From Candidatus Bathyarchaeota archaeon (GTDB lineage Archaea; Thermoproteota; Bathyarchaeia; Bathyarchaeales; Bathycorpusculaceae), in NCBI GenBank assembly GCA_963780185.1, contig CAWABA010000009.1, positions 64,001 to 128,000 of the forward strand: a stretch of 64,000 nucleotides of DNA, read 5' to 3'. The notes under the pieces were generated by a model. That model did no database searches and was not told the origin of the DNA. It worked only from the letters and a program-made list of their open reading frames with translations. The position numbers were made by a program, and so were the translations under genes. Positions 6,178-8,131 of the stretch are shown piece by piece (the first letter of the stretch is position 1; each line of letters opens with the position of its first letter).

Positions 6178-6474
6178 ATGACGCCTATTGTGCAGCTTTA
6201 CTGGATTCGAGTCGGGTTGGGGGTAGTTGCGGCGGTCATAAGTGCGGCGTTAGTTTTGTACCTGAATCTGCCTTTAAATGACCTGAGCAGCCTAATTGAC
6301 GCCTTCACGATTGCCCTTCTAATTTACTTAGGATCTTTCTACCCGCTCAAAGCAATATACTCAAAGAAAATAGAGAAACAATCAAAAATCCTAAGCACAG
6401 CCGTAATAATGTACTTCTTCGCTTGGCTGCCGTTCTTCGTGCTGTTCTTCACACTATTCAAAATTTACTTTTAG
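6178..6474 (+). CDS. Small 3-TM membrane protein, EMC6/Rab5ip(OPTI)-like
   Basis: 98 aa, three hydrophobic segments; LYWIR at the start of TM1 and YFFAW...Y at the C-terminus; TATA-like element upstream. Confidence 0.6.
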   Translation: MTPIVQLYWIRVGLGVVAAVISAALVLYLNLPLNDLSSLIDAFTIALLIYLGSFYPLKAIYSKKIEKQSKILSTAVIMYFFAWLPFFVLFFTLFKIYF

Positions 6475-6496
6475 TTTTCTTTTTTTAAAAAAAGAG

Positions 6497-6955
6497 TTAT
6501 TCTTCTTTTTTCTGCAGGAAATTGGCGATTGTAGCTTGGCTTTTGTCGCTTCGAAGTGTTTCTATTTTTTCTTCTGCGTTTGCTTTTGCGTTTCCGTTCT
6601 GCGGAGCCGGGATGTCCATGCGTGTTAGGATGCGCATGCAGTCTGCCCATGCTGAGAAGTATCCGCGGTCGAAGTCTCCGTGTAAGCCGTTGCCCATGTG
6701 TTCAAGGAACTCTTTTCTGTAGTTGTGCAGGGCTACTTTGTCGCTGAGGTCGATTTTTGAGAGAAAAGCGTAGTCGTCGGTTGCGCTGTTTTTGCGTGCA
6801 AGGTAGATGCCGTAGAGTGCTCGGAAGTATCCTCTGTTCCAGTCGGTTTTCTGCATTTTCTGCTTTACCCTTTCCAACTCGCGTTCTGCTTCGCTGAATT
6901 GCCTGGCTACTATGAGTTGGAAGTACCGTGTTACTAAGGCTTGTGAAATCGGCAT
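6497..6955 (-). CDS. Hypothetical helical protein with C-terminal PIP-box-like motif
   Basis: Starts 2 nt after the radA stop; internal RGYFxA repeat; ends QATIANFLQKKEE. Confidence 0.8.
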   Translation of the reverse strand: MPISQALVTRYFQLIVARQFSEAERELERVKQKMQKTDWNRGYFRALYGIYLARKNSATDDYAFLSKIDLSDKVALHNYRKEFLEHMGNGLHGDFDRGYFSAWADCMRILTRMDIPAPQNGNAKANAEEKIETLRSDKSQATIANFLQKKEE

Positions 6956-6957
6956 GT

Positions 6958-8019
6958 TTACCGTCCGCGGCTTTTAGTTGCTTTCTCCTCTTCAGAGACA
7001 TCCTCTATTCCGTTCTCGGTTACTTTAAGTATTTCCTCTCCTTCAGGCAAATACGGACTTGAAACTAGCCTTGCAATCCGTATGGGTCCATGCGGGGCTT
7101 TTCGAAGGTAAATGCGTGTGTGGCTCGTGTGGCCCACGATGTTTCCGCCGATGGGGTGGATTGCGTCGCCGAAGAATTGGTCGGGTTTAGCCATCACTTG
7201 GTTAGTTACGACTGCGACGGCGTTGAATGCTCGGGCCAGCGCGATTAGTTTGTGCATGTGTTTGTTGAGTTTCTGCTGTCTTGAAGCCAGCATTTCTCTT
7301 CCGAGGTATTCGCTTCGGAAATGGGCTGTTAGGGAGTCAACTATGATTAGTTTAATGTTGTTTGCCTTGATTATTTCGTCGGCGTTTTCCAGAAGAAACA
7401 TTTGATGGTCTGAAGTGTAGGCTTCAGCGTAAATGATGTTTTTGACCACTGTGTCAGGGTCTAAACCTAAAAACTTCGCCATCTGCACGATGCGTTCAAG
7501 CCTGAAGGTGTTTTCTGTGTCAACATAGAGGGCTGCGCCGTTGAGTCCGCCTCTCTCAGGAGGCAACTGAACGTTCACGCAGAGTTGATGGCACATCTGG
7601 CTTTTTCCGCTTCCATATTCGCCGTAAAACTCCGTTATCGTCTGAGTTTCTAATCCGCCGTCAACAACTTTGTCTAAGGCTTTGCTGCCTGTGGTTAGGC
7701 GGAGGACGTTTTTTCGCATTTTGGCAAGTTCGTCTGCACGGATAAATGAGACGCCGATGGCTGAGCGTGCGGCTTGTATGATTTGGAAGGCTTTTTTCTC
7801 GCTTACTCCAACTGGCTCCAGCTCTCGCGAAGTAGCCATAGCTAAGGATTCCACTTGGTGGTATCCGAGTTCTCGGAGTTTTTGCGCGGTTGCTGGTCCG
7901 ACTCCTGGCAGGTCTTCTATGAACTCGTATTTCGGTTTGGTTTCTTCAGCCTGTTTCTCTTTGGTTTCTTCTTGTTCTTCGGCTTCTTGGTTTTGGTCGT
8001 CTTCATTTTCTTCAGACAT
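6958..8019 (-). CDS. radA: DNA repair and recombination protein RadA
   Basis: HhH LPGVGPATA, Walker A GEYGSGKS, YVDTENTFR, IIVDSLTAHFRSEYLGR, VTNQV, RLVSSPYLPE. Confidence 0.98.
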   Translation of the reverse strand: MSEENEDDQNQEAEEQEETKEKQAEETKPKYEFIEDLPGVGPATAQKLRELGYHQVESLAMATSRELEPVGVSEKKAFQIIQAARSAIGVSFIRADELAKMRKNVLRLTTGSKALDKVVDGGLETQTITEFYGEYGSGKSQMCHQLCVNVQLPPERGGLNGAALYVDTENTFRLERIVQMAKFLGLDPDTVVKNIIYAEAYTSDHQMFLLENADEIIKANNIKLIIVDSLTAHFRSEYLGREMLASRQQKLNKHMHKLIALARAFNAVAVVTNQVMAKPDQFFGDAIHPIGGNIVGHTSHTRIYLRKAPHGPIRIARLVSSPYLPEGEEILKVTENGIEDVSEEEKATKSRGR

Positions 8020-8131
8020 TGCGTTTCACACTTTGCATCATGATATCCTTTGGGTATTTAAAACAACCGAAGAACAGGACAGGTTGCAGAGTGGAGAGGT
8101 GACTGAAAGTGAAGTTTCTTTTTTTTGCGAG

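Follow-up and report, generated by a model that had tools for sequence, protein, structure and literature searches.

The small gene that lies directly behind the recombinase gene radA in the window (the whole stretch of 64,000 nucleotides of Candidatus Bathyarchaeota DNA that was analysed) belongs to an apparently undescribed protein family, here called X. The family has no name and stands behind radA in about nine out of ten sampled loci from several classes of the phylum, which marks it as an obvious candidate for RadA's missing partner. With a probability of roughly 0.4, we propose that X is an accessory protein of the radA operon, in which a helical domain would do the work and a C-terminal tail would tether the protein to the sliding clamp PCNA in some lineages. 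The coordinates of the gene, its neighbours and its segments are listed in Table 1.

Table 1. Positions of the X gene, its segments and the neighbouring features in the window
Feature	Positions	Strand	Remarks
NFACT-family protein, 724 aa	3955..6129	-	PF05833 E 3.5e-68, PF05670 E 2.6e-32
EMC6-like membrane protein, 98 aa	6178..6474	+	convergent neighbour of X; conserved block
A/T-rich spacer between convergent 3' ends	6470..6496	.	T-runs on both strands, oligo-T terminator-like
X gene	6497..6955	-	ORF, 152 aa plus stop; undescribed family
PIP-like box QATIANFL, residues 140-147	6515..6538	-	fits canonical pattern; in 30/30 loci of the window's taxonomic family (f1)
Conserved segment EKIETLRSDKS, residues 129-139	6539..6571	-	directly before PIP-like box; nearly invariant in 120 closest homologues and f1 loci
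Variable linker, residues 116-128	6572..6610	-	low pLDDT; varies among close relatives, flanks conserved
Repeat 2, residues 59-115, predicted helix hairpin with FDRGYFSAW (family hallmark)	6611..6781	-	helices 73-88, 94-112
Repeat 1, residues 1-58, predicted helix hairpin with EAERELE and WNRGYFRALYG	6782..6955	-	helices 5-16, 20-33, 38-55
radA, full-length recombinase, 353 aa	6958..8019	-	upstream partner of X in putative bicistron
TATA-like TTTTAAATA	8055..8064	-	about 35-45 nt upstream of radA ATG, read by eye

The first-pass annotation had described an uncharacterised gene 2 nt after radA, and the coordinates bear this out: the ATG of X occupies positions 6955-6953 and the TAA stop codon of radA positions 6960-6958, with a spacer of 2 nt (6956-6957) between them. 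The protein encoded upstream matched NF003301 (E 3.3e-138) and TIGR02236 (442 bits, for a cut-off of 361) in the NCBIfam search and PF08423 (E 6e-87) in the Pfam search, which also detected an N-terminal HHH_5 domain at residues 34-85; judged by these matches, it is a genuine full-length RadA. Ahead of the HhH domain, the window RadA carries an acidic low-complexity N-terminal extension of about 30 residues (MSEENEDDQNQEAEEQEETKEKQAEETKPK; 7930-8019, minus strand). On the coding strand of X, a run of seven T comes straight after the stop codon, and a 22-nt spacer precedes the convergent gene. The T-runs after the X stop may represent an archaeal oligo-T terminator, and TTTTAAATA upstream of radA is a putative TATA-like element. 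As the spacer between the two genes is 2 nt long and an oligo-T stretch is found only after X, X would be translated from the RadA transcript, and the two genes are presumably co-transcribed.

Metatranscriptome contigs from three runs of one study bridged the radA/X junction at about 90% identity, and a 209-base contig from an RNA run of a second study matched X with one mismatch. These RNA runs were available as assembled contigs with small word shares, so that radA stretches without cover (7939-8100) are meaningless. The contigs are a weak hint of expression; they do not establish that the region is transcribed, let alone as one transcript.

A word-indexed search returned 2134 homologues of X at E<=1e-3, which mark it as a real gene; all are unnamed or annotated as 'hypothetical', and the named ones come from Bathyarchaeia. 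An exhaustive phmmer search of 1.84 billion cluster representatives yielded 192 homologues. A search with the single protein as query picked up X in 271 of the 301 genomes sampled from the class Bathyarchaeia; among the high-quality ones, 148 of 152 were positive. Across the phylum, 401 genomes were sampled, and the X profile gave hits in 188 of them (65/65 genomes of the class and 123/336 others). These hits are concentrated in certain families (27/27, 15/16 and 13/14 genomes, for example), and five other families of the phylum, each represented by 13 or more genomes, gave none (0/61, 0/17, 0/23, 0/13 and 0/16). For one of the groups outside the class, f47, a protein 100% identical to the query carries the source label Nitrososphaerota / 'Aiga...'. 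The earlier view of X as a lineage-specific protein therefore had to be abandoned, since the family reaches beyond the class into several others of the phylum.

Gene order was compared at 180 loci. The taxonomic family of the window and the largest family of the class contributed 30 each, another 21 families of the class 80, and 16 families belonging to other classes the remaining 40. X was located directly 3' of radA, on the same strand and with a gap of about 0-35 nt, at 159 of the 180 loci (134/140 in the class and 25/40 in other classes), and the synteny with radA that the first-pass annotation had suggested checking was thus found to be both tight and wide. Five additional families of the class supplied six further primary X loci, all of them linked to radA. 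The radA partners of X are full-length, divergent ones included. An in-frame RadA-X fusion was detected among three long X homologues, but it is weak evidence, as it represents a single cluster. Complex prediction with RadA residues 31-353 and X gave a score of 0.07 against a mark of 0.32, which is evidence for neither side. At four loci (L079, L094, L109 and L175) the radA frames are 840-1270 codons long, which suggests inteins inside RadA.

The structure of X was modelled with AlphaFold2 from an alignment of 63 sequences. The model has a mean pLDDT of 85.2, a pTM of 0.71 and six helices, with block pLDDT values of 80-98 for residues 1-120 and of 55-62 for residues 121-152. WNRGYFRAL (residues 39-47) and FDRGYFSAW (residues 95-103) each start the second helix of their predicted hairpin. 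When residues 1-58 were compared with residues 59-118 by hhalign, using the family alignment columns, a probability of 85% and an E-value of 6e-6 were obtained over 46 columns, with WNRGYF and FDRGYF in register. Taking alignment and model together, the two halves of X are homologous helix hairpins that form a compact domain, all-helical and about 115 residues long; the two RGYFxA helical repeats noticed in the first reading of the sequence were both recovered, in helices and homologous to each other. In the family alignment, G42 and G49 of repeat 1 are invariant and A23, L27, Y43, A46 and L47 nearly so, while in repeat 2 G98 is invariant and F83, D96, F100 and A102 are nearly invariant. The pattern G-[YF]-[FY]-x-A marks the predicted start of the second helix in each hairpin and is probably structural. 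RGYFRA and RGYFSA were also considered as BRC-like mimics of the F-x-x-A polymerisation motif of RadA. This was set aside, as they align as a structural repeat and lie inside the helices of a confident fold, where a structural role is more likely for the G[YF]Fx-A motifs than exposure as RadA-binding peptides.

No Pfam family, RecX included, matched X at E<=1, and no relevant NCBIfam family was found. The X profile gave no match to PDB sequences at E up to 10, and a Foldseek comparison of the model with the PDB returned nothing at E<=1e-3. A wide, exhaustive structural comparison using VIA-align reached a best Z of 5.8 with partial TPR-like hairpins (Z 5.0-5.8), a range that is common for helical models, and one distant X orthologue gave sub-threshold matches to TPR_14/TPR_19 (E 0.011-0.012). 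In a protein atlas, the clusters retrieved for X were all Bathyarchaeota entries annotated as 'hypothetical protein'. In a subfamily of 227-252 aa (P0138, P0151, P0194, P0254 and P0264), the X domain is preceded by a conserved N-terminal stretch of some 110 residues, which appears winged-helix-like by eye and has no Pfam match.

The helical domain is followed by a tail of low pLDDT, in agreement with the flexible linker and the QATIANFL motif near the C-terminus that had been pointed out in the first pass, and the motif matches the canonical PIP pattern Q-x2-[LIVM]-x2-[FYW]-[FYWLIVM], as given in excerpts of PMC6009593. It is followed by QKKEE and thus ends about five residues before the C-terminus, within the low-pLDDT region. 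Among the 120 closest homologues, the linker is variable and EKIETLRSDKSQATIANF[LFI] is almost invariant; such a conserved segment next to a freely varying linker is typical of a short linear motif. The canonical pattern was present in X tails at 30/30 loci of the window family and at the single f6 locus (1/1). The 7-residue core was also found at 6/6 f4 loci and at the single f31 locus (1/1), with differing sequences (QTSLTQY, QTRIIQY and similar in f4, QTTLDKF in f31, and also QTDIFQF), and metagenomic relatives end in QSTLFDF, QRTLTDF or QSTLTDF after long unrelated linkers. The core occurred in the last 25 residues of X at 33 of the 180 loci, whereas 500 shuffles of these tails yielded 0.41 occurrences on average and at most 4; in the window genome, 19 of 5758 ORFs of at least 80 aa have the PIP pattern within their last 20 residues. 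By these counts, the PIP-like motif of the X tail is more than a chance occurrence, and the PIP reading of the tail is good as a sequence feature.

Conservation of the tail was strict in the window family, but the motif is missing in most orthologues: the 7-residue core was found in X at 38 of the 140 loci of the class, was absent from the other 102 and was present at 0/40 loci outside the class. At 30/30 loci of the largest family sampled (f19), the last helix motif of X is followed by 20-35 residues. The first-pass annotation had proposed an adaptor that links RadA recombination to the sliding clamp. Of this proposal, the linkage to radA and the tail conserved in the window family stand, whereas the loss of the motif in most orthologues counts against a general role. 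As most orthologues have no PIP-like tail, PCNA tethering cannot be the core function of the family. From the distribution of the sequences, the tail is a lineage-restricted add-on on a conserved helical core, and, as the PIP tail is narrow and other lineages have other tails, the conserved function would sit in the helical domain. These other tails comprise F[ED]V[AV]PRKK at 6 of 7 f40 loci (L158-L164), where X is not beside radA, LPxPH[KR] in f42, f47, f57 and f59, and [KR]PW in several families of the class, so the tails look like interchangeable connectors. The f40 motif F[ED]V[AV]PRKK holds an F-x-x-A like the polymerisation motif SFIRAD of the window RadA itself, and may be a RadA-docking peptide.

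The window genome contains one PCNA gene. C-terminal PIP motifs were found in the same genome in PolD DP2 (QSKLFDF), a Hel308-type helicase (QRALSEF), a Y-family polymerase (QKQLTSFY) and NreA (QKKISDFF). The C-terminal PIP of NreA is documented, and nucS, the gene of a PIP-bearing nuclease, overlaps radA in T. kodakarensis (excerpts of PMC4929162); in Mre11 of Thermococcales, a recombination protein has a lineage-restricted PIP-like tail (excerpts of PMC6009593). Another candidate PCNA client is a protein of 301 aa with no Pfam family (L034; G000:C7:209280-210185, minus strand), which ends in the canonical PIP-like KQLNMNDFW, and a DUF488 protein of 192 aa (L199; G000:C1:174447-175025) ends in PQRTLGDFGSG, with a PIP-like core near the C-terminus. 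In the RNase HII of the window genome (L197), the C-terminal TTQSTLA starts like a PIP motif but lacks the aromatic pair. X orthologues of one f5 genus (L036-L038) have a similar ending, RIVQTKL[VT], and some f30 orthologues carry QATLDQ[SP]. These RNase HII, f5 and f30 endings may be a shortened clamp-binding variant in the class.

radA and X are part of a larger block with the order radA > X > < EMC6-like, NFACT >, which several classes of the phylum have retained. The EMC6-like gene is convergent directly after X at 160 of the 180 loci, and NFACT was found downstream of X at 104 (60 of the 180 had only 1.5 kb of flank). The window copy of the EMC6-like gene has no Pfam match; of 12 homologues, 8 gave hits to PF07019/PF19094 at E<=0.02, with two exceeding the cut-off, and the protein atlas gives the same EMC6 lead for this small convergent gene. 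The members of the block belong to recombination (radA), membrane insertion (EMC6-like) and ribosome quality control (NFACT). As it is part of an old block with functionally unrelated genes, the neighbourhood of X and radA is weaker evidence than the figure of 159/180 suggests.

As a somewhat less likely alternative, X may be a passenger of this ancient block with a housekeeping role apart from RadA, such as a small TPR-like adaptor for NFACT or for the EMC6-like protein; its position at radA would then be merely inherited order, and the tail would serve some other lineage-specific purpose. The conservation of the block across classes agrees with this, as do the weak TPR-like signals (Z up to 5.8; TPR_14/19 at E 0.011 in one orthologue). 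At the 120 loci with 4.5-kb flanks, RadA was a neighbour of X at 99 loci in 28 taxonomic families, and the EMC6-like gene (98 loci, 34 families) and NFACT (87 loci, 33 families) accompany it in more families. Of the 21 X loci without radA, NFACT is kept directly downstream in 18, with a gap to X of about 2 nt in L195, and the EMC6-like gene in 16; at all of those scanned with Pfam (14/14), NFACT lies downstream on the same strand with an opposite-strand gene of about 100 aa between. Such an opposite-strand gene usually separates X and NFACT, which are thus not co-transcribed, whereas radA and X are the only members of the block that are both co-directional and nearly overlapping. NFACT is moreover absent from the flank at many loci that keep radA (14/16 f30 loci with 4.5 kb downstream, 6/10 f5 loci and 30/30 f19 loci with 1.5 kb). 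The PIP box present at all 30 loci of the window family is common to DNA enzymes of the same genome, which argues for DNA metabolism rather than the ribosome, and the PIP tails together with a zinc-finger fusion of X point to nucleic-acid transactions.

The tail itself allows two more readings. X might be a PCNA client or regulator without RadA contact, competing with or organising other clients, for which the radA neighbourhood would matter for co-expression only. A canonical C-terminal PIP after a disordered linker, conserved in the window family, is what such a protein would show, and a small, non-enzymatic PCNA binder of this kind, TIP, is known from Thermococcales (excerpts of PMC4929162). 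We nevertheless regard this as unlikely: most X orthologues have no PIP, so the conserved domain must act without PCNA, and this reading would offer no explanation for the close, operon-like association with radA that is seen across classes. Less probable still is that the tail is not a PCNA motif but one of several lineage-specific C-terminal motifs for other partners, possibly RadA itself. In other lineages this position is indeed occupied by other conserved motifs (F[ED]V[AV]PRKK, LPxPH[KR] and [KR]PW), but QATIANFL and the f4, f6, f31 and metagenomic variants match the PIP core and not each other's flanks, and the same motif ends four established types of PCNA client in the window genome.

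As an accessory protein of the radA operon, X would be made together with RadA from one transcript, and its two-hairpin domain would act as an accessory or regulatory partner, its most likely contact being RadA or the DNA to which RadA is bound. In the window lineage, the C-terminal PIP box after the disordered linker would dock X on the single PCNA of the organism and so place it at clamp-loaded DNA, i.e. at replication forks or at sites of repair or D-loop synthesis, where it would either recruit or restrain RadA. The binding of PCNA by X, any contact with RadA and the direction of the effect are all inferred. In a wider and tentative form, X might serve the archaeal recombinase as an accessory factor in much of the phylum, a functional counterpart of RecX or of Srs2/PARI whose lineage-specific C-terminal peptides plug into different hubs. 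If so, these hubs would be reached by the PIP box in the window family and by the F-x-x-A/PRKK and PxPH[KR] tails elsewhere, and the window lineage would couple RadA directly to the sliding clamp.

Bacterial RecX is a small all-helical tandem-repeat protein whose gene lies directly 3' of the recombinase gene and is co-transcribed with it, and the recA-recX arrangement resembles that of radA and X. RecX consists of three three-helix repeats, whereas X has two hairpin repeats. A RecX structure was not among the fold matches listed for X, although weak or missing matches leave such a fold possible.

Srs2 and PARI bind the clamp by a C-terminal PIP box and act on the recombinase Rad51 at forks (excerpts of PMC6551702), which is by analogy the functional idea proposed here for X. 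They are, however, large UvrD-type helicase-like proteins, whereas X has 152 aa, a helical domain of about 115 residues and no UvrD-like Pfam match. NreA, NucS and Mre11 of Thermococcales share with X a C-terminal Q-x-x-[LIVM]-x-x-[FYW] after a flexible segment, restricted to some lineages, in what excerpts of the sources describe. They have no sequence or domain relation to X, which is without a recognisable catalytic or DNA-binding domain and most orthologues of which are without the motif.

The nearest published case among the literature excerpts considered is PPB2 (arCOG07300) of the PolB2-iRadA-PPB2 operon, a small three-helix protein, some complexes of which have clamp-binding motifs (PMC11791011). 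Like X, it is small, helical and encoded beside a gene of the RadA family; its partner, in contrast, is an inactive RadA paralogue without the N-terminal domain, located beside polB2, whereas X has six predicted helices and a full-length RadA as neighbour. A PPB2-type operon with an inactive RadA paralogue was ruled out for the window, as the RadA there has the HHH_5 domain and a score above the equivalog cut-off, and no polymerase ORF flanks the genes.

Nothing on family X was found in the literature on archaeal radA operons, on genes 3' of radA and on Bathyarchaeota radA or PCNA, the broader part of which was covered by titles and the starts of abstracts. The type of the PIP motif is known; the family itself appears not to have been described before, nor its breadth or its position after radA. 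To our knowledge, very few regulators of archaeal RadA have been reported, and the only documented archaeal couplings of recombination to the clamp that we know of, Mre11 and NucS in Thermococcales, are lineage-restricted. The PIP-bearing versions of X make a link between RadA and PCNA directly testable. If X instead belongs with NFACT or the EMC6-like gene, then radA, X, EMC6-like and NFACT represent an unexplained deep archaeal gene order.

Two further variants of X were observed. Second copies of X in one f5 genus (L202-L205) have an N-terminal zinc finger of the C2H2 type (C-x2-C-x12-H-x4-H) and stand alone, with no radA, EMC6-like gene or NFACT nearby. In two proteins of about 300 aa (P0364 and P0365), the first helix unit, RQFxEAExELE, is present in about eight tandem copies, and the remainder of X is kept, including a QATM.NF[FL] tail.
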